Origin: an uncultured Actinomycetes bacterium
GTDB lineage: Bacteria > Actinomycetota > Thermoleophilia > Gaiellales > JAICJC01
Direction of reading: 5' to 3'
DNA length: 64,000 bases
Assembly (NCBI GenBank): GCA_963809325.1
Contig: CAWEIZ010000008.1
Span: 126,165 to 190,164, forward strand
Both the position numbers and the translations under genes were made by a program. This document shows positions 11,567 through 35,500 of the stretch, piece after piece (the stretch's first letter is position 1; every line of letters begins with the position of its first letter). The notes below the pieces were generated by a model. That model worked only from the letters and a program-made list of their open reading frames with translations. It did no database searches and was not told where the DNA came from.

Positions 11567-11594
11567 GTCCGGGTTCCTGCAATCCCTGTAACCC
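11567..11594 (-). repeat. Right TIR (family A) of an upstream element whose left end is not seen in the window
   Basis: GTCCGGGTTCCTGCAATCCCTGTAACCC; 27/28 identical to 15395-15422 and inverted (26/28) relative to 11609-11636. Confidence 0.8.
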
Positions 11595-11608
11595 CCGCCA
11601 TTCTTGAC
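11595..11608 (+). repeat. 14-bp inter-element spacer CCGCCATTCTTGAC (variant target-site copy)
   Basis: Same length and same 3' CTTGAC as the duplicated TGCCCTGCCTTGAC (8/14 identical); sits exactly between two abutting TIRs. Confidence 0.65.
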
Positions 11609-12310: not shown

Positions 12311-12536
12311 GCCGCTACCAGCAGGAGTGGGCCGCACGAGACGCTGCGTAACCCGGACGGAAGCCCATTGCTTCGTGCCGCAGCCATCACCCGCGGCTGG
12401 CTCGACACGCATCGGATCTCGGCGGCCGCGCTTCGGCGCCGCGGGCTCATCCGAACCAACGGTCATGGCCCGACGTGGTCGGTACGGCTCACCCAAGCCG
12501 GGCAGGTAGCTCCGTTGGGCGTCCGACTGAGGGGAC

Positions 12537-13820
12537 TCACGCGGCCTCCGGCGCCGATGCAAGACGTGACGGTGCTTCGTGGAGCGGGTCGGGAATGCGG
12601 TCGCCGAGTCGAAGCAGGACGGCTCCGGCCAGCACCGCGGCAAGCGCGCCACCCCACCAGATGGCGTCTGGTGAGGTCTGTAGGAGAAGGCCACCAATCG
12701 CTGGGCCGAGGGCCAGGGAAATGGTGAAGGTCAGACTGTAGAGAGACAGGTAGCGGCCGAGCAGATGGGCTGGAGCCATGTCCGCGACCAGCGGCCCGAG
12801 GACGAGAATGTGTGCGATTTCGCCGAGTGCGAAGACGATCGCAACGCCGACGAGGAGACTGGTCGCAGCGAGCTCCGAGTGGATGAGCGTCGCTGGCAGC
12901 ACCGCGAGCAGGCTGACCGCAAAGAGCGCGCTTGTCAGCGCGAAAGCGTGTGTGCGTCGCATCCGTGCCACTACGCGCACCGCCGGGATCTGCGCGATGA
13001 CGATGAAGGACGTGTTGACGAGAACGATGATCCCGATCTCGGCGGGGCCGACCGGTGTGTGGGCCTTTGCAAAGGGCGGCAGGATGTTGGAGAACAACGT
13101 GTGGCCGACGACGACGAGCACGATGTTGGCTGCGATCACCGTGAGGAAGAGCCGATCTCGAGCGACGGCGCGAAAGCCGGTTCCGTTGGCGTCTGTCGCT
13201 GCGACGGTCACGGCTCGCGGGCTCGGTACTGCAGCGAGCACGATCAGCGCGAATCCGGCGTAGGTGACAGCGTCGAAGAAATAGAGAATCTGGAACGAGC
13301 TGAGCCGCTGTGCAGCTGCGACGACGAAGCCGGCTACGGTCGCGCCGACGCCAATACCGAAGTTGCCGGCGACGCGGTTAAGGGCGAAGGCGGCCGCTCG
13401 CTGCTCAGGCGTGACCAACCTGACGACCAGTGTCCGGTTGGCCGTCCCTGCCGCCCCGAGCCCGGCTCCGCTGACAATCGAGCAGGCAAACGCCTGCCAG
13501 GGACGCTCGACGAAGGCGAAGCCGGCGTAGCCAAGGGCGCTCGCCAAGCTTCCTGCGACCACGATCGCTTTGGCGGAGTACCGGTCGAGCAGCGCTCCCG
13601 TCGGCGGGGTGACGATTGCGGACGTCCCCATGGTCGCCGCGAGAACCAGTCCGGCTGTCGACGTCGGGAAGCCACGTATCTGGTGCAGATAGATGATCTC
13701 AAAGGGAAGAACGAGCCCGTAACCGAAGTAGTTGAGGGCGTTTCCCGCTTGAAGGATGAGCACGGGGCGAGAGAGCCCGGTGCGCCAACCCGCGATGAGG
13801 TGTGAGACGCGGCGGTTCAT
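12537..13820 (-). CDS. MFS transporter
   Basis: Multi-TM hydrophobic ORF; GALLDRYS motif A; start uncertain (ORF extends to 14099). Confidence 0.85.
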   Translation of the reverse strand: MNRRVSHLIAGWRTGLSRPVLILQAGNALNYFGYGLVLPFEIIYLHQIRGFPTSTAGLVLAATMGTSAIVTPPTGALLDRYSAKAIVVAGSLASALGYAGFAFVERPWQAFACSIVSGAGLGAAGTANRTLVVRLVTPEQRAAAFALNRVAGNFGIGVGATVAGFVVAAAQRLSSFQILYFFDAVTYAGFALIVLAAVPSPRAVTVAATDANGTGFRAVARDRLFLTVIAANIVLVVVGHTLFSNILPPFAKAHTPVGPAEIGIIVLVNTSFIVIAQIPAVRVVARMRRTHAFALTSALFAVSLLAVLPATLIHSELAATSLLVGVAIVFALGEIAHILVLGPLVADMAPAHLLGRYLSLYSLTFTISLALGPAIGGLLLQTSPDAIWWGGALAAVLAGAVLLRLGDRIPDPLHEAPSRLASAPEAA

Positions 13821-14287
13821 CCGTCCTGGAGAACGGATGCCTCCCGCGTGAGGAATCTCGGTTGGTGTCATGCCGTCGGCCTGAGGCACGCGGCGTCCAC
13901 GTAGCCGAGTCGACGCGGATCGCAGTATCGCTATTGGAGTGGCCGCCACGTGTGGCTCGTGCGCGACGCGACGGGCGAGGCGGATCGTGTGCCTCCGGGC
14001 GGCCGCGCGATGTAGGTCCTCGATGTGAGCGGTGGCGAGCGCTCGAGCGAGAGCGGGATGCAGCATTTGAGCCTCCTTTCCTCTACGACGACGCTTCACC
14101 TCAGTGCCGACCAGGTCGCCGCCCGATCGATCGTTTGGGGTGGTCGGCTTGTGCGCATTGGTCGTCCAATCAGAACGCGAATTTGCCTGTCGCGGGTTCT
14201 GACCCCGCCTGGTGGAGAAACTCGCCGACGAATTTCGAGCATCGGTGGTGTCACAATCGTTGTGAGCCGCGATGCCAGACTTCGCTC

Positions 14288-15293
14288 GTGAACGACAGCG
14301 CTCTGATCCGTGCCCGTGCGGGCGACCATCAGGCGTTCGCGGCGCTCACGGACCCCTACCGGCGCGAGCTGCAGCTGCACTGCTACCGGATCCTCGGCCA
14401 GGTGCAGGACGCCGAGGACGCGGTGCAGGAGACACTCCTCTCCGCGTGGAGAGCATTGGAGTCGTTCGAGGAGCGCTCGACGCTGCGCTCCTGGCTGTAT
14501 CGGATCGCCACCAACCGCTGTCTGAACATGCTGCGCGACAGCGGTAGACGCCCCGCGACGGCGGCCGGGCTGGCATCCACCCCCCCGGAGCCCACCCGCT
14601 ACGGCGAGGTGCTGTGGCTCGAGCCCTATCCCGACGCGCTGCTCGAAGGCATCGTCGACGGCGCGGCCGGTCCGGAGGCCCGCTACGAGACCCGCGAGGC
14701 GGTAACGCTCGCGTTCCTCACCGCGCTTCATCGCCTCCCGCCCCGCCAGCGCGCCGTGCTCGTGCTTCGCGACGTGCTGGGGTTCTCCGCCACTGAGGTC
14801 GCCGCGATGCTCGATACCACCCCGACGTCGGTGAACAGCGCGCTCATCCGCGCCCGCGCGACGATCGAGGAGCGCGGGCCGCGGGCGCACGACCGAGCGC
14901 CGCTCCCCCGATCAGCCCAAGAACACGAGCTCGTCGCGCGGTTCGCGGACGCATTCGAGCGCGGAGATGTGGAACCGATCGTCGCGCTGCTGGCCGAGGA
15001 CGCGTGGCTGGACGATGCCCCCGGAGCCTCACGAGTACCAAGGCCACGACGCGATCAAGCAGTTCATCGCCCATGCGTTCGCGAGACGGGACAACCCCCA
15101 CCGCCTCATTCCGACGCGGGCCAACTCCCAACCCGCGTTCGGCCAGTACGTCAAAGACCCACACACCGACGTCGGCCGCGCGCTCGGGCTGCTCGTGCTG
15201 ACACTCGACGGCGACCGCATCTCGCACATCACCCGCTTCGCCGCGACCAGCGCCCTACCGCACTTCGGACTCCCCCGAACGATTCCGTGGTAG
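14288..15293 (+). CDS. ECF sigma-70 factor with C-terminal SnoaL-like domain (SigG-like), frameshifted near 15010
   Basis: DAEDAVQETLL, WLYRIATNRCL, LPPRQRAVLVLRDVLG; C-terminus TRANSQPAFGQY in a second frame. Confidence 0.85.
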
Positions 15294-15422
15294 CCACTCG
15301 CTCAGCGCGAGAACTCTCAGCGTTACCGTGCTGACCCGGAACCAAGACTCGCGACCCTGCGGGGTCGCGTCCCCTCCTCGACACGAGCAACCATGTCCGG
15401 GTTCCTGCAATCCCTATAACCC

Positions 15423-15436
15423 TGCCCTGCCTTGAC
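15423..15436 (+). repeat. Target-site duplication, left copy TGCCCTGCCTTGAC
   Basis: Identical to 19612-19625; lies between the family-A right TIR and the family-B left TIR. Confidence 0.9.
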
Positions 15437-15548
15437 GGGAGAGTAGATAGAGAGGGTGAAACGCCGCACAAGCGGTAAGGCGGCTCGGGTATTCTGGGTC
15501 CGGGCAATTGAAGGGAGTCGTGATGGGCGTCGAGGAGGCGCTCGGCGG

Positions 15549-16484
15549 CTCAACGCACTCCTCAACTACCTGTATGCGCTACTCGAAGCCGAGAGCCGCA
15601 TCGCCCTGGCGATAGTCGGCCTCGACCCTGGCATCGGCATCCTCCACACCGACCAGCGCGCCCGCGACTCCCTCGCCCTCGACCTCATGGAGACCGCCCG
15701 GCCCGCCGTCGACCGATACGTCCTCGACCTGCTCGCCGCCCGTCCGCTACGTGGCAGCGACTTCGCCGAGACGTCGAAGGGCCAGTGTCGGATCATGCCG
15801 ACCCTCGCCCGCCAACTCGCGACTACGACGCCGGCGTGGGCGGGCGAGGTCGCGCCGCATGCGGAGCTCGTCGCCAAGCTGCTCGCCGCCGACGCTGGAC
15901 TCGCCACACCACCGACAATCCTCACCGGCAACACCCGGCGGGTGGCCCGACCCAGCGGCAGTCGAATCCGGCCGGACCAAGTGCCCAGGCCGACGGTGCC
16001 GGCGCAAGCGTGCCGCGATTGCGGAGCGGATGTCCCCGCCGGGCGGCGCCGCTGCGCGAACTGCCACGCCACCGCGAATGCTGCGAGGCTCCGCGCACAC
16101 CAGGCCCTTGGAATTCTCGCGCGCCAGGCGACCGGGAACCATCCATCCACACGAGCCGACGTCCGGGCAAGCATCGCCGCCGCCCAACGCGTGCAGTGGC
16201 AAGCTCGCCACCAGGACACCGGTACCGGCTACACCGGCCACCCGTCGGAGTTCCGGCGCCTCATCCTCCCACGCCTCGCCGGCGCCCGGCCCGGAGACCT
16301 CGCCCGCGCTACGGGGCTCTCACGCGGCTATTGCGCCCAGATCCGCGACGGCCGGCGTGTGCCACATGTTCGCCATTGGGCGGCGTTCCAGCTCGCAGGC
16401 CTCAACGGTCGCCGCGCTGAGCCGTTTCAGCGGACCCACATCTGGTCGATCATGGGGGAGTTCCCCGGCGCCGACGCGGTTTGA
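15549..16484 (+). pseudogene. cas1: N-terminally truncated solo Cas1 (casposase-like) with C-terminal CxxC..CxxC Zn finger and HTH
   Basis: LNALLNYLYALLE..GLDPGIGILHTD..RDSLALDLME..RP is the Cas1 catalytic-domain signature; CRDC..CANC; LARATGLSRGYCAQIRDG HTH; ORF 15456-16484. Confidence 0.85.
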
Positions 16485-19400
16485 AAGTTGCCGACGCGTT
16501 TGGATGTGAACCCGAGGGTGCTGCCGGTGCCGATCGGGATGACCAGCGCGTCGTCTGTGAGGTGGTGGTCGACGGCCGCCCAGGCGCGCATGCCCTGGTA
16601 CTGACTTTCGCTTTGCTTTGCGTAGGCGTCGGTCAGATCGCTCGGGGTGATGAGCCCGCGCCGAAGCCCGAGGATGAAGTCCGAGGCACCGACATAGTCA
16701 ACGACCCAGGAGTAGAGGTCGATGTCTTGCGCCTCTTTTGGATACCCCTGTTCATCCACCGGCGTGAGCCGCGCGCGGAACCCAAGGTTGTTCAAAAGTT
16801 CGACGACGTAACGGGCGGTGTTCGTCCCCCTGACGTAGGACAGGACCGAGACCGGCTTGCCGTAGCTCGGCGAGCGGTGTACGAGCTTCTGGGCATGTGC
16901 AGGGTCGAGCTTGTATGGGCAGTAAGGCCGATGCCCGGGGAAGTTGAGTGGGATCAGCTGGCACGTCGGTGGCGCTGGCACGCTGCTGCTGCCGTTGTTC
17001 AGGATACTGTGGAGCCTGTCGCGGTCGATGGCGTATGCGATCGCGTGTCGCGCCGTGCGATCGCGATTCAACCGCGAGTTCGGTTCAATAACGAGCACGT
17101 CGGTGGCGGGGTAGGCGGATGGGTGAGTCTGGGCTGCGTAGTTGGTCTCGATCTCATGGATCTGCTGCGTGGTTGGCTCAATCGCGAAGTAGAGCCAGTC
17201 GGCGGTACCGTGCTCGACCGCGGAAACAGCCTGGCTGGTTTTCTTGTAGACCCGGAAGACGATGCGATCGGGGTATCCGTCGGGTTGCGCGTCCGGTGAC
17301 CATTCGTGGAAGTACGGGTTGCGTACGAGGACGTACTGCCAGATGTCGTAGCGGATGATCATGTACGGGCCGGTGGCAGGCAACGGGTGGCGACCGGAGT
17401 CGTGTCGAGGGGCCTCGGGGGGCATCGCGGCCGCGAGTGGCATGGCGAGTTTCGCGAGGAAGTCGGGATCGGGATGTCGCAGATGAAACGTGATCCTCCC
17501 GGTATTGTCGTCCACCACGATCCCACGACTGAGGTCGCACGACCCCGGGGACGCCAGGCATTTCGGCGCGCCGACGACCGCGCCGAAGACGGACTGCGAG
17601 TCCACGGGTTGCGAAGGATCGAGGTAACGGGCATTGACCGTGAACGTGCGCTCAAGGCCATAGCGGATGTCGCCGGCGCGCACCGGCCTTCCGGTCGAGT
17701 ATCGGATCCCCTCACGCAGCTGGAATGCGTACGTGCGGCCGCCGTCGGTGACCGTCGGAAGCGCCTTTGCCAGATCCGCGACCACCGTCCCGCCGTCCGG
17801 ACCGGGTACTCGTTTCAGGCTGACGAGGCCGTCGTTCGTCACCGCAAGCGAATCCCACACCACGGGGAACCACGCGTCAAAGCTGTCGGGGTCGACCGAT
17901 GGACGCTCACGCAGCCCGTCCTCGCTGGCGCCCGCGATGGTCAATGTCCCGCCGCGGTGCTCCGTCCGGGATGTCGTGGTGGTGATCGCCGCGCCGTCGT
18001 CGACCGTTGCCACGTCCTGCGGAGGGGCGCCGACCGCCAGGCTCGACCTGATCTGTCCCGTCTTGGCATCGAGGCGGACGACCTTCGCGGAGCCGCGGGC
18101 CGCCACCCAGACCGCGTCGCCGACCACCGCCACGCCCTGCGGATCGTCGCCTCCAGTCGGGAACGTGGCCACCACGAGTGTGTCCGGGTCGATCCGCGAG
18201 ACCGACCCGTCCAGGCTGTTGGTGACCCAGACCGCGTCTCCGATGGCGATGCCGTTGGGTCCGTGGCCGACCGCGATCGGCGTACCCGTCGTGTCGGTCG
18301 CCGGATCGATCGGCGTCACCGTCCCGACCGACTCGTTCGTGACCCACACTTTGCCAAAGCCGACCGCGACTCGCGTGGGGTTTGTCCCGACCGAGAAACG
18401 TATCGACGACCTCGACCCGTGTCCGGGTCGATCTTCGCAACCGCGCCGTCAACGCTCAGCGCCACCCACACCGCCCCCCGGCCGACCGCGATTCCGGTCG
18501 GGCCGTTGCCCACATAGATCGGTTCGCCGACAACCCGCTGGACAGTCGGGTTCACCTCCGACACCGTGCCATCGCCCGCGTTCGCGACCCACACGCTGCC
18601 CGCGCCCACCGCGACCGCATCCGGCCCGTCGCCGACCTGGACAGCCTGCTGCTGGCCGGTGGCCGTGTCAACGGCCAGGACGGTGTCTTGCGAGTAGCGC
18701 GGTAGCCACGCAACCTTCCCGTCGACCGCCACCCCGAACGGCGCCTCATCCAGCTCAAGAGGCGCGCTCGCATGCCCACTCGCCTCGACCAAGCTGAACG
18801 AGTTGCTCGCCAACCCAACCGACGACGCCTCGCCCCCTCTCACAAAGATGACACCGATCGCAGCCGCCGCGGCCACCGCCAACGCCACGGCCGCGACCAT
18901 CCACGCCGTCGACCGTCGCCGCTTCGGCGCCGGCACGACTGGAACGGCGGGGAGCGGCGTCTCCGAGATGACCTCGACCAGCCGCACCGGCGCCTCGATC
19001 CCCTTGAACCGGCGCGTTCGCGCGGCCGAGAACTGGACTCCGTCGACGCGTTGCGAGAGATGGACAACGGTCTCGCTGGCCAGAACCTGGCCCGGCGCCG
19101 CGACCGAACACAGTCTCGCGGCCAGGTTCAGCGCACCGCCCCGATAACCACCCTCGGTCGGCACCGCCTCACCCGCATCCAACCCGACCCCGACGCCCAC
19201 CGGGAACACATATCCGTTCTCCTCTGACGGCGTGCGCAGGCGCCGCTGCAGCTCCACCGCCGCCCGCAATGCCTGCCGCGCCGACCCGAACACGCACAGC
19301 GCCTCGTCGCCGCGCAGCTCCAACAGTTCGCCCCCATACGCCGGAACCGTGCCCCGGACGAACCCGGCAAACGACGCCGCCAGATCCGACGCCGCCTCGT

Positions 19401-19506
19401 CGCCCTGCTCCTTCGTAAACCGCGTGTAGCCACGCACATCCGCGATCAGGAATGTCCGCAACTCCGTCGGCGAGATCGGAACCGGCCCGTCCGTATCGTC
19501 TGCCAC
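16427..19506 (-). CDS. Adenylate/guanylate cyclase + TM + YVTN beta-propeller + family-5 solute-binding fusion, frameshifted near 18400
   Basis: FLIADVRGYT, LRGDEAL, GALNLAARL; repeated VWVAN..GTVS..; ATGPY..RNPYF SBP_5 motifs. Confidence 0.8.
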
Positions 19507-19611
19507 GATCCACCGAGTCTACATCCGAGGCCGTGCTTAGAGCAGCTCGGGGCATCATTCGGGGCGCCGTGTCCGTTTCGACGGCGTTTCGACCTCTCTA
19601 TCTAGTCTCCC

Positions 19612-19625
19612 TGCCCTGCCTTGAC
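19612..19625 (+). repeat. Target-site duplication, right copy TGCCCTGCCTTGAC (overlaps putative lexA -35)
   Basis: Identical to 15423-15436. Confidence 0.9.
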
Positions 19626-19649
19626 TCCGTCCGACCCCTCTGCAACACT
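19621..19649 (+). promoter_or_regulatory. Putative lexA promoter: TTGACT-N17-AACACT with TG extension
   Basis: Canonical spacing just upstream of SOS box, AGGAGG RBS (19674) and GTG start. Confidence 0.6.
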
Positions 19650-19654
19650 TCGGA

Positions 19655-19670
19655 TCGAACACACGTTCGA
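19655..19670. promoter_or_regulatory. SOS (LexA) box TCGAACACACGTTCGA
   Basis: Perfect match to actinobacterial TCGAAC-N4-GTTCGA directly upstream of lexA. Confidence 0.9.
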
Positions 19671-19686
19671 CCCAGGAGGGCGACCG

Positions 19687-20317
19687 GTGGATCTGACCTC
19701 GAGACAGCAGGAGATTTTGGCGTACGTGAACACGCACGTCGACGAGCACGGCTACCCGCCGACGGTGCGCGAGATCGGCCAGGCGGTGGGGCTCACGTCG
19801 CCGTCGACCGTGCACGCCCACCTCGAGAAGCTCGAGAAGGCGGGCCTCATCCGGCGCGACGCAACCAAGCCGCGCGCGCTCGAGGTGATCGAGGGCGGGC
19901 GCTCCCGGCGCGGCTGCGGTGGTCGAGCTTGCGCCCCCGCGCCAGTCGACGATGCTCCCGCTCGTCGGCGAGGTTGCCGCCGGCTCCCCGGTGGTCGCCG
20001 AGGACCGGGTCGAGGACTACCTCGCCGTGCCCGACCAGCTCGCCCCCGACGCCGACTTCGTACTCACGGTCAAGGGCGACTCCATGGTGAACGCCGGCAT
20101 CCTCGACGGCGACCTCGTGGTCGTCAGAAAGCAGGACGACGCCCGAAACGGCGAGATCGTCGTCGCGCTCGTCGGTGACGAGGACGCGACCGTGAAGCGG
20201 TTCTTCCGCGAGGGCGGCCGCGTCCGGCTCCAGCCCGAGAACGACGCCCTCGAGCCGATGTTCCCGGACCAGGTTCAGATCCTCGGCACCGTGAAGGCGG
20301 TGCTGCGACGGCTGTGA
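19687..20317 (+). CDS. lexA: LexA repressor (frameshift near 19915)
   Basis: [19 protein letters not shown]; VAAGSP cleavage site; GDSM and TVKR catalytic motifs. Confidence 0.95.
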
Positions 20318-32504: not shown

Positions 32505-35500
32505 ATGACAGTTCGCTTCGAGGCCGACCCCGAAGCGGCCGCCCACCGCGCTGAGGCGTGGTGCGGGGAGCCGCTACTCCATGAAGGCGAGGACCCTGCG
32601 GTCGCGCTTGCCGAAGGCACGGTCCGGCGCGCCGCGCTCGACGCCGCCCTCGCGGAGATGGACCGCGGCCTGCTCGAGCCGAGCTACGAGTGGAAGCGCG
32701 ACTACGCGCTCGTGCTCGGCCTCGACCGCGTCCTCAACGACCCCCAGCCGAAGCTGGCCTCCGGGACGACGCTGCGCCGGCACCAGGTCGACGCTCTGGC
32801 CGGCCAGCTCGCCGCCCTGATCGGCGACCTGGAGCGCCGGGCGCTCCACGAGGACGACGACGAGAACGGCAACGGGAACGGCGAGATCGACGACGCCGAG
32901 GTCGAGGAGGACGACGACGAGACCGGCGAGTACGACCCGGACGACGACGACGAGGACGAGGACGTCGAGGACGAAGAGGAAGACGAGGACGAAGAAGAAG
33001 AAGACGACGAGGATGACGAAGACGAGGACGAGGACGTCGAGGACGACGAGGACTACGCCGGGGACTGGCGCGATCCGGCCGTCGCAGCGGTCGAGCTCGA
33101 CGACGACGACGTCTCCGTCGAGGAGCCGGCGCTGCCCGACGCCGGCGCCGGGCGCCGCTACCGGTTCAAGCACCCCACCGCCTCGGGCAAGACCATCGCC
33201 GCGGCCGGGTTCGTCGAGGCGGCGCGCACCACCGGCGTCCTGATCCTGACCCACCGGCGGCTGCTCGTGAACCAGTTCACGCGCGACCTGACCCACGAGG
33301 GCTACGGCGATCGTCTCCACGAGCCGGTGCAGACCGGCCAGCCGACCCCGCGCACCTCGCCGCTCACGATCAACACGTACGCCTGGTTCATCAAGCACGC
33401 CGACCAGATCAAGCGCGACGTCTACGGCGTCGTCGTCTGCGACGAGGCCCATACCGCTCTCGGCGAGAAGACGGCGGCGGCCATCCGGCGGTTCTCGGAG
33501 CCCGTGTACATCGGGATGACCGCGACGGACCAGCTCCTCCAGAAGCACGTCGGCGACGTGTTCCCGGCCGAGGTCGCCGACTTCCCGCTCGCCGAGGCCG
33601 TGCGCCGGGGCGTGGTGGCGCCGCTTCGGTGCGTGCGGGTGAAGCCGATCGCGTCGCTCCGGCAGGTCGACATCGTCGGCGGCGACTTCGACCAGGGCCA
33701 GCTGGCCGCAGCTCTCGACATCGATCCGCTCAACCTCGCGGCCGCCGACCTCTACCAGAGCCGTTTCGGCGACACGCCGGGCATCGTCTACGCCGCCGGC
33801 GTCGACCACGCCGAGCGGGTCGCGGCGGCGATGCGCGCGATCGGCCTCGCGGCCGCGGCCGTCTCCGGCCGCACGCCGCCGCGCGAGCTGGCCGAGACGC
33901 TGGCCGCGTACGAGCGCGGCGAGACGAACGTCCTCGTGAACGCGCAGATCCTCGCGGAGGGGTGGAACGCCCCGCGGGCAACGGTGTGCATGCACCTCGC
34001 GCCGACGGCGAGCCGGCGGGTCTATCAGCAGCGGGTCGGCCGGATCATGCGCCTGCACCGGCGCAAGGAGGCGGGCGTCGTCGTCGACTTCGCCGAGGTC
34101 GGCGCGCCGCACTCCGAGCGGGTCGTGACGCTGCACTCGCTGCTCGACGTCGACGCCTACCGGCCGGGCGGCCTCGTCACGCCGCCGCCGCCGCGCCGCC
34201 GCCGCGGCCGCCGTAAGCCCGCGCGGCCGATCGTGAAGGAGGCCAACTGGATCGTCCCGGTGTCGGACGACCCCGAGCGCCGGATCGCTGTCATCGCGAG
34301 CCAGTGGAAGCACGTCGACGCGTCGAAGCTGCCGCTCGACGAACAGCGCGCATGGGCCACGGTCGCGGCCCGCCAGCTCGCACCCGGCGACGTGCACACG
34401 CTGACCGAGCGGATCGTCGCGCTCCAGCCCGAGGCCCGAGAGCTCTTCTTCTTCACGTGCGCGGCCGAGAACAAGCACCGCAAGCTCCGCCTCTCGAGCC
34501 TCGGCGATCTCGCCGCGTCGGGCCCCAGCCAGACGACCTTCGCCATGGCCTGCCGGCTCGTCGAGGCCGCGCCGACGTGGCAGCAGGATCGCGGCCAGGG
34601 GGCCCGCGTGCTCCTCCTTGCGATGGGCGACGGCAAGATCGAGGCCCCGCCCGACCGGATCGTCGCGTGGACGTGGCAGCTCGCCCGCGCCGCCCGCGAC
34701 CACGAGTACCGCTATGCCGGAAGCCACATCCAGGACGGCCGGAGCCTCCTCGGCGCCCTGGCGGGCGCGAAGTCCGACGCCGAGCACAGTGAGGCCTGCC
34801 TGCGGCTCGCCGCGGTGGCCCGGGACGCGCCGCTCGAGGCGGGCGCCGCGCTTCTGGCCGTTGCGGCCCCACGGCGGGGGACGCAGGGCGAGCGGCTGGT
34901 CGAGTCGGCCCGGCGCACGCTGTCGGAGGACCCGATCCGGCTGGCGGCGGCGCTTGGCTCCAACATCCCCGCCCCGGCGCAGCGCTCGAAGCAGGCGCGA
35001 AAGACGAAGCGCAAGGCCGAGAAGGCGGCCGAGACGGTGTCGTTCAACGGCGCCGTCGTCGGCTCGACGCCCCCGGCGACACCCGTGAAGCGCGTCGACG
35101 GAGTCGTCGAGGTCGAGGTGCTCCCGGCGGTCGCGGTGCGCCTTCGCGACGACGCCGACGATGTGCTCTCGGCGCAGGTCGGGCCCGAGCTTCGCTGGCG
35201 GCTCTCGGGCGACGGCGAGCGCACGTCCGCGACCGCGGTCGAGGTGCGCGCGGCGGCCGCCGAGATCGCACCGCTTGCCGTCTCGGTCGCGAAGCTCCTG
35301 AACGAGCCCGACCGCAGCGAGCGCACCGCGCCGGTTCGCGTCGACGGCGCGGGGCTCGTGCTGCCGCTCGAGATCGACGAGGCGGCGGTGCTCGCAGACG
35401 ACGCGGCCCGGCGCGTGCTCGCGCAGCTCAAGACCGCGGGCGTTCGGGGCCGTGTCCGGGTCGAGTTCGAGCTCCGCGGCGCCGACGGCGAGGTCGTCCG

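Follow-up and report, generated by a model that had tools for sequence, protein, structure and literature searches.

The 342-aa product encoded at 15456..16484 on the plus strand is very probably what remains of a casposase: the reading frame is the stranded 3' two-thirds of a casposase gene, held within a chimeric, non-autonomous casposon derivative of 4,175 bp (element A, 15437-19611) at the -35 box of the lexA promoter. The machinery that integrates CRISPR spacers presumably descends from casposons. A gene-carrying, non-autonomous casposon derivative is new; the open-access literature searched yielded no account of gene-carrying or non-autonomous casposons in nature, and none of insertion targeted to promoters. 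Positions are those of the window, that is, the whole stretch of 64,000 nucleotides that was analysed.

The progenitor would have been a casposon of 10-19 kb whose full casposase comprised a Cas1 domain, a zinc ribbon and an HTH. Its arrival would have been by Cas1-type integration with staggered cuts 14 bp apart. About 8-9 kb, with the PolB module and the first ~215 cas1 codons, has been lost, and the DNA downstream of cas1 has been swapped for a host gene. Only ~1 kb of element A is casposon DNA. The features of the element and its surroundings are as follows (TIR, terminal inverted repeat).

15423..15436, no strand: left copy of the target-site duplication, TGCCCTGCCTTGAC, an exact repeat of 19612-19625 and also the spacer between elements B and A
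15437..15489, plus: left end of element A, with the TIR arm (15437-15475, core GGGAGAGTAGATAGAGAGG) and then subterminal sequence common to other casposon ends
15456..16484, plus: ORF of 342 codons; codons 1-30 are TIR and filler, codons ~31-315 casposase
last 28 codons of the ORF, up to 16484, plus: first ~9 filler, final 19 antisense host DNA
15490..15545, no strand: filler of 56 nt at the deletion junction, matching no locus and nothing in the genome
15531-15818, plus: Cas1 domain remnant with the His and Asp/Glu motifs (Pfam, NCBIfam)
15546..16400, plus: casposase-homologous segment, 77.8% DNA identity to L043:10639-11488 over 853 nt
~16002-16073, plus: C4 zinc ribbon after a linker, followed by a long helical hairpin (AF2 model)
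~16244-16409, plus: HTH, tentatively XRE-like (AF2 model)
16401..16426, no strand: filler of 26 nt at the second breakpoint, no match
16427..19522, minus: captured host gene, with cyclase-like N-terminus, membrane segment, beta-propeller repeats and SBP_bac_5
19523..19572, no strand: filler of 50 nt between the host gene and the right TIR, no match
19573..19611, minus: right TIR of element A (inverted repeat and pattern search)
19612..19625, no strand: right copy of the duplication, whose TTGAC is the lexA promoter's -35 box
19656-19671: inverted repeat TCGAACACACGTTCGA, between the -10-like box and lexA (start 19687)

The truncated casposase gene

The Pfam model PF01867 (Cas_Cas1) matches residues 26-121 of the product with E 1.4e-24 (87.2 bits, profile positions 182-277 of 283), and the NCBIfam Cas1 models cover the same C-terminal part (TIGR03640, E 2.8e-22, profile positions 193-286 of 340); of the Cas1 domain, only the final ~100 residues are present. 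The preliminary description had reported that Cas1 similarity starts abruptly at ~15549, some 110 bp inside the element end. On comparison with ~60 fetched loci, the onset of cas1 DNA homology was indeed found at 15546-15561 (with L025, at 15616, as the exception), which is 110-125 bp inward from the end at 15437. That description had also held that the His and acidic motifs were kept while the N-terminal domain and the first catalytic Glu were lost, and had proposed a PF01867 search and an alignment with full-length homologues as checks; both agree with it. GILHTD and LDLME are retained, and in an alignment of 13 full-length relatives with the window the columns H252, D264 and E267 are invariant, the window included. 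The first ~215 residues, including the nearly invariant E169, have no counterpart in the window. Element A therefore encodes no complete Cas1-family casposase; with the N-terminal domain missing, and the first catalytic Glu as well, the fragment should be unable to integrate DNA.

The C-terminal tail had been described as a CxxC-CxxC segment followed by an XRE-like HTH. The first part stands: at least 90% of 59 sequences conserve the four zinc-ribbon Cys, and the window keeps all of them together with the conserved tail residues W, P, S, G and PH..HW. Matches to Pfam models stayed under the cut-offs, both for zinc ribbons (E 0.026-0.04) and for HTH_31 (E 0.089). An AF2 model of residues 166-342 (the C-terminal 177), built from 59 sequences with a pLDDT of 84.8, shows a zinc ribbon, two long helices in a hairpin and a four-helix HTH. 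The top Foldseek matches of this model are all XRE/Cro-type HTH proteins, all at E >= 0.29, and give no more than a hint that the HTH is XRE-like. A sigma region 4, as a possible reader of TTGAC, was also considered for the HTH and set aside, the top matches being of the XRE/Cro type instead and none of them significant.

Within the remnant, 311 homologous codons hold no stop and no frameshift, and the retained part has lost no residue that is invariant or nearly so. The undamaged state would speak against a long-dead pseudogene, which would be expected to look otherwise.

Full-length relatives

A protein search with the ORF gave 370 relatives at E <= 1e-3 among 8000 scored candidates. Among the best 120 of the 370 they are mostly 490-540 aa long, and the closest among the listed matches (P0002, 515 aa) is 75% identical. 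Scanning genomes, one for each species, turned up 289 relatives; the 79 loci retained belong to Actinomycetota, Acidobacteriota, Chloroflexota, Gemmatimonadota and other phyla. These were searched for inverted repeats around cas1 whose outer flanks are direct repeats of 12-16 bp with at most one mismatch. Of the 79 loci, 24 have cas1 enclosed by such a TIR pair with its direct repeat, mostly a perfect 14-mer, and these elements measure 7.5-19 kb; two of the 24 are doubtful (L029, of 7.5 kb with a TIR of 15/20 and a 12-bp repeat with one mismatch, and L047), and the other 22 measure 9.9-18 kb. The other 55 loci are uninformative, since a contig end or the 10-kb flank often truncates them. The ends of the TIR-bounded elements start with GGGATAGGAGATAGGG or similar. 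Overall, full-length relatives (~505-540 aa) occupy elements of 10-19 kb that have a PolB gene, TIRs and 14-bp duplications. A scan of metagenome contigs with the Cas1 fragment yielded a single irrelevant partial locus (L140).

The start of cas1 in full-length elements lies 8-9 kb from the left end. Upstream of it, L030 carries a PolB ORF of 1166 aa that matches PF03175 (DNA_pol_B_2, E 2.6e-7) and gives nothing at E <= 1 in a PDB sequence search; its counterpart in L066 (1142 aa) is without a Pfam match, and FCDTDS occurs in both polymerases. In the passages on this motif in Kazlauskas et al. (2020, PMC7544198), CDTDS gives its name to the PolB_CDTDS group of the A. boonei casposon polymerase. 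The two PolBs (L030:4319-7816 and L066:3947-7372) end in a Cys-rich, CxxC-type segment after a helical region, recalling the HTH tails on family 2 PolBs in the part of Krupovic et al. (2014, PMC4046053) that treats them. According to the section of the same paper on AceAut-C1, a family 3 casposon, a ZBD and an HTH are joined onto the C-terminal end of its Cas1; its supplement gives the TIR as GGGATAGTAG... (GGGATAGTAGTGAGG...) and a 15-nt direct repeat CGTCAATTCTGGCAG (PMC4046053). Judged by architecture, TIR start, duplication and bacterial host, the full-length relatives are probably family 3 casposons similar to AceAut-C1. One part of PMC9966878 cites 54 casposases as a reference set.

These relatives also bear on whether the ORF could be the remnant of a CRISPR adaptation module, as the Pfam and NCBIfam models, named for CRISPR Cas1, would suggest. 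A PDB sequence search scores CRISPR Cas1 (4n06, 1.1e-21) much like the M. mazei casposase (6opm, 3.6e-20). However, the full-length relatives sit with PolB in elements bounded by TIRs and duplications, and both Cas2 and a CRISPR-like array are missing from the genome, so that the chance of a CRISPR origin is next to nil. The lack of cas2 and of an array had been pointed out from the window and extends to the genome (98.45% complete), in which PF09827 was not found and a naive scan revealed no CRISPR-like array; the window holds no array-like repeats. The direct-repeat families of the window are dominated by a long run of GAC/GAG/GAA codons at 32830-33100, an acidic, Asp/Glu-rich stretch of low complexity.

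Ends, target-site duplication and empty site

The TIRs of element A (15437-15475 and 19573-19611) are 39 nt long with 82% identity, 18 of the 19 positions agreeing at the tips, and both arms are homologous to the ends of the full-length casposons L043, L066 and L002. On both sides the element is flanked by the perfect 14-mer TGCCCTGCCTTGAC, a target-site duplication of the ~14-15 bp kind. Two matches to the 19-nt TIR core were observed, a number that none of 100 shuffles reached; three matches to the 14-mer at up to two mismatches were observed, as in one of 100 shuffles. Casposon homology is confined to 15432-15489 (left ends of L043 and L066, to which blastn matches extend as far as 15473-15489), 15546-16400 (cas1) and the right TIR. 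For the filler stretches (15490-15545, 16401-16426 and 19523-19572), blastn-short against all loci and the whole genome returned only chance matches of 13-19 nt.

The preliminary description regarded the element as internally deleted. Since cas1 lies 8-9 kb from the left end in full-length elements, element A has lost the PolB module together with the 5' part of cas1. This loss of ~8-9 kb, which takes in ~215 codons at the start of cas1 and spares both ends, upholds that description. An element of 4.2 kb leaves no space for a PolB gene, and the L066 PolB finds no match in the genome. Of the relatives, G023 is the closest; it aligns with the window at 12508-15436 (96.1%) and then directly at 19620-19706 (100%); as its alignment jumps from 15436 to 19620, element A is precisely absent from G023.

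The same junctions were examined for an assembly collapse or chimera, which is hardly credible as the source of the truncation. The assembly is prone to indels, with one extra base in lexA relative to G023 and G022 and a host gene in two frames, but the junctions carry no repeat able to cause a collapse, and an artefact would sit poorly with an element that has TIRs and an exact duplication and is precisely absent in G023. Moreover, contigs from three runs cross 15390-15654 and 16353-16628 with 0-1 differences. The left junction is bridged by the soil metagenome contigs X3 (15414-15593, 0 differences), X2 (15390-15589) and X1 (15473-15654), and the junction of cas1 with the host gene by X1 (16370-16628), X3 (16353-16584) and X2 (16373-16523) with 0-1 differences, all assembled from short reads of three soil runs in two or three studies; one of the runs may be the source sample, so that their independence is incomplete. 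Read support around 15470-15550, proposed earlier as a check against collapse, is thus provided by contigs that cross the region. Another contig (X20), which joins 15454 to 15833 and skips 378 nt, was considered unreliable, with 25 nt on one side and a depth of 2.5.

The captured host gene

Between the cas1 remnant and the right TIR lies a host gene on the minus strand, which reads as two ORFs (18316-19506 and 16427-18349) and contains an SBP_bac_5 match (Pfam, E 1.3e-39). A genus-wide DNA search found orthologues of 16427-19522 in G022 (89%), G008 and G045 (82%) and G043 (78%), none of them beside cas1. In G022, G008 and G045 the flanks of the orthologue are 86-92% identical to C8:633109-634547 and C8:655433-656928 of the present genome, and the ancestral locus is ~490 kb from the window. 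The stretch homologous to host DNA runs from precisely the stop codon (16427) to a point 16 nt upstream of the start codon (19522), and the gene thus has a 5' leader of 16 nt and no native promoter. An intact gene (1026 aa) is found only in G008; because these assemblies have many single-base indels, the two-frame copy in the window is not called broken.

The interval between the two flanking segments in the present genome, C8:634548-655432 (20.9 kb), holds genes of copper/zinc homeostasis and a trehalose synthase, and its left border is 25 nt after a TTGACA. It was considered as the missing casposon interior and rejected, as it has ordinary genes (YkuD, TreT, CopD, CtaG, ZnuA, Fur, SCO1 and an IS256-type fragment) and no casposon ends.

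The ORF and the host gene converge and overlap by 58 bp (16427-16484), which had been suggested to be a second rearrangement scar; a junction between casposon and host DNA does lie there (16400/16427). Since casposon homology stops at 16400 and host homology starts at 16427, the scar is real, and the ORF finishes with 19 codons of host DNA read in antisense. The host gene has taken the place of the natural cas1 end and of everything downstream of it. Element A has the make-up of a gene-capturing, non-autonomous transposon, with ends of an autonomous family around host DNA and no working transposase.

Capture and insertion could have taken place in two orders. The full element would have inserted and later decayed in place, or an already chimeric element would have been integrated by a casposase that acted in trans and came from a casposon no longer present; element A is a single copy, and its perfect duplication fits either order. 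The latter course would make element A a natural 'pack-casposon', chimeric at integration, in which a casposase acting in trans moved a host gene and a casposase stump to the lexA promoter, and this is possible rather than probable. If it were true, family 3 casposases would shuffle host genes between promoters and build CRISPR-like arrays, and binding of the retained zinc-ribbon/HTH stump to the ends or to the -35 target might make the site immune.

The lexA promoter as insertion site

Element A sits exactly at the -35 box of lexA, whose promoter is a casposon hot spot throughout the genus. The right copy of the duplication has TTGAC as its last bases, and downstream of it come tccgtccgacc, a -10-like AACACT at 17-18 nt from TTGAC, the inverted repeat and lexA. 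The repeat TCGAACACACGTTCGA at 19656-19671 we take to be SOS-box-like, and LexA domains were shown for the orthologue in L027. All 17 same-genus loci have N9-TTGAC-tccgtccgacc upstream of lexA. In 15 of them the N9 is directly preceded, judged by eye, by a recognisable casposon end, of which there are four types; this count includes L094 (6 nt at the contig end) and leaves L099 (3 nt visible) and L093 uncounted. A full casposon of 16 kb with the TIR of element B occupies the same lexA site in L027. Relatives from other families carry tRNA-Leu(GAG) at the lexA site and no casposon end (12/12). This tRNA gene was considered as a mark of the left border of the array and discarded; in the present genome it is on contig C2.

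Of the 24 elements with TIRs and duplications in other phyla, 15 have a duplication edged by TTGAC (or GTCAA), 22 of the 24 being displayed (L029 and L047 left out). A TAnnnT-like hexamer was seen by eye 17-19 nt beyond TTGAC in those 15. Genes downstream of the TTGAC-edge elements include lexA, Rrf2, thiolase, radical SAM (three loci), TPR and EamA.

Within any one array the 9 nt that precede TTGAC do not vary (G020 and G012 have three copies each), and between genomes they are hypervariable; the comparison covered 15423-15436 and 11595-11608 of the window and loci L088-L104, L136 and L120. Between the present genome and G023 they differ at 5 of 9 positions despite flanks of 96-100% identity. 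Homologous recombination that exchanges entire arrays could account for this variability. The lexA gene itself reads in two frames (N-terminal part from 19687, C-terminal ORF 19919-20317), with one extra base near 19914 relative to G023 and G022, due to an indel of the assembly or else to a genuine frameshift in this SOS repressor gene.

Neighbouring units

Element A is the promoter-proximal, last unit in a tandem array of decayed casposons. The units to its left are:

11567..11594, minus: solo B-type casposon end, back to back with element B; the 14-bp spacer is the palindrome loop
11609..15422, no strand: element B, with 29-nt TIRs (GGGTTATAGGGATTGCAGGAAC..., 97%), no Cas1 or PolB, an MFS transporter and an ECF sigma factor

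The flanks of element B, CCGCCATTCTTGAC and TGCCCTGCCTTGAC, differ. No left partner of the solo end (11573-11594) was found in the window at up to four mismatches. The cargo of element B is 90-96% identical in six other genomes of the genus, as against ~78-81% for the lexA region in G019 and G017, and it also looks host-derived. Chromosomal MFS-sigma pairs ~70% identical to it occur in relatives. In G044 a 3.3-kb relative of element B (L156:1218-4554, 95% identical) is flanked by a perfect 14-bp duplication of its own, and an end of the element A type comes after it.

Similar arrangements are found elsewhere. G020 has a three-unit array with the same 14-mer between the units, ending at lexA in a mini-element of 1,568 bp with perfect TIRs and duplication. 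A Cas1 fragment in G013 (aa 433-504) begins 17 nt inside a TIR, a geometry as in element A. One G020 array unit, L136:14013-17553, has a B-type left and a C-type right end, as a hybrid or a deletion fusion of two elements would. A short element of ~3.96 kb with A-type ends (L043:15235-19194) directly follows a full-length casposon, with the same 14-mer gtcaaaccggcgcg between them; what it contains bears no relation to element A. G013 has casposon units that share the spacer CGGAGCGATTTGAC and reach the end of contig C5 (L137, L138), and the same spacer occurs at lexA near the start of C8 (L098); the G013 array may exceed 45 kb and span the contig break.

Mobility and possible expression

The genome (98.45% complete, 8 contigs) has ORF 15456-16484 as its sole Cas1 match, no match to casposon PolB (with the single protein L066 PolB as query) and no further copy of either TIR type. 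As no other Cas1, PolB match or TIR copy was found, element A is stranded now; the genome being 98.45% complete in 8 contigs, a casposon may lie in the unassembled part. The preliminary description had made the element dependent on a trans-acting casposase and suggested a search for an intact copy elsewhere in the genome. None was found, the one Cas1 being the fragment itself, and in the form stated the dependence is not supported for this genome. Across the genus, Cas1 of this casposase family occurs in 6 of 31 genomes (a count that includes G015, flagged unpublished); it is intact in G004 (529 aa), G041 (530 aa) and G043 and otherwise fragmentary, and the G004 and G041 genes are of the same TIR type as element A.

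N-terminally truncated transposases inhibit Tn5 or P elements. By analogy, the truncated protein might be made and act as a DNA-binding regulator that blocks insertions into the lexA promoter or represses incoming casposases, presumably with its zinc ribbon and HTH reading casposon ends or the TTGAC target. The intact frame and the conserved residues of the retained part, all kept, would suit this role, as would the confident fold of the C-terminal 177 residues (pLDDT 84.8). C-terminal Cas1 fragments also recur (aa 352-506 in G020; aa 319-504, 283-507 and 430-505 in G013), and read-through from the same-strand sigma gene, which ends at 15334 and is followed by no T-rich plus-strand terminator, is conceivable. 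Against it, 15200-16700 has no promoter-like (sigma-70-like) site; the only upstream start, GTG 15456, abuts a Shine-Dalgarno-like purine run with zero spacing, and the next in-frame ATG (15690, the Met of LDLME) falls after the His motif. The fragments of relatives and the short database homologues break at different residues, one metagenome contig of low depth (~3) carries 1-nt deletions in the ORF at 15575 and 16386, and the genome has no active casposase to regulate. A truncated-transposase inhibitor would have expression signals of its own and a cognate active transposase, and neither was found here; a regulatory role is accordingly improbable. A conserved short isoform was likewise considered and dropped, as the short database homologues start at differing residues or are frameshifted. 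The Cas1 fragment is probably without an expression signal of its own.

Significance and comparison with known systems

The locus shows how a casposon decays in bacteria, with deletion derivatives that keep their ends, a captured host gene, hybrid units and solo ends. The units are stacked with 14-bp spacers beside a conserved 'leader', the lexA promoter. They offer natural substrates for asking whether foreign DNA is mobilised in trans in bacteria, how the TTGAC target is read and how far such stacks resemble early CRISPR arrays. The locus also calls for caution in annotation, since the label 'CRISPR-associated endonuclease Cas1' here denotes a transposon relic.

Pack-MULEs and similar elements are eukaryotic, gene-capturing, non-autonomous DNA transposons in which the ends of an autonomous family enclose a host gene and a transposase remnant, with short fillers at the joints. 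Element A resembles them in having termini around a captured host gene and a remnant of the transposase gene, with filler at the joints. It differs in belonging to another transposase superfamily and another domain of life, and it is known from a single copy.

The tandem casposons of Methanosarcina, in the passages devoted to them in Krupovic et al. (2016, PMC4779613), likewise reuse one target site, are separated by the shared duplication only and have one copy of a pair inactivated. The inactivated copies described in those passages are full-length, with stop codons in polB, whereas deletion derivatives, hybrids and mini-elements are found here, in bacteria and at a promoter -35 box. Artificial mini-casposons, which serve in assays of integration (PMC5137440, PMC10359463), are also TIR-flanked DNA without casposon genes; those are laboratory constructs, while element A is natural.

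With family 3 and AceAut-C1, as covered in the relevant sections of Krupovic et al. (2014, PMC4046053), the casposase with a C-terminal ZBD and HTH is shared, and so are TIR starts of GGGATAG... or GGGAGAG..., duplications of 14-15 bp, intergenic sites and a CDTDS-type PolB. The repeat of AceAut-C1, CGTCAATTCTGGCAG, has the same GTCAA edge (PMC4046053). Unlike family 3 casposons, element A is without PolB and retains only the 3' part of the casposase gene, and at 4.2 kb, three quarters of it host gene, it stands against the 14-20 kb of family 3.
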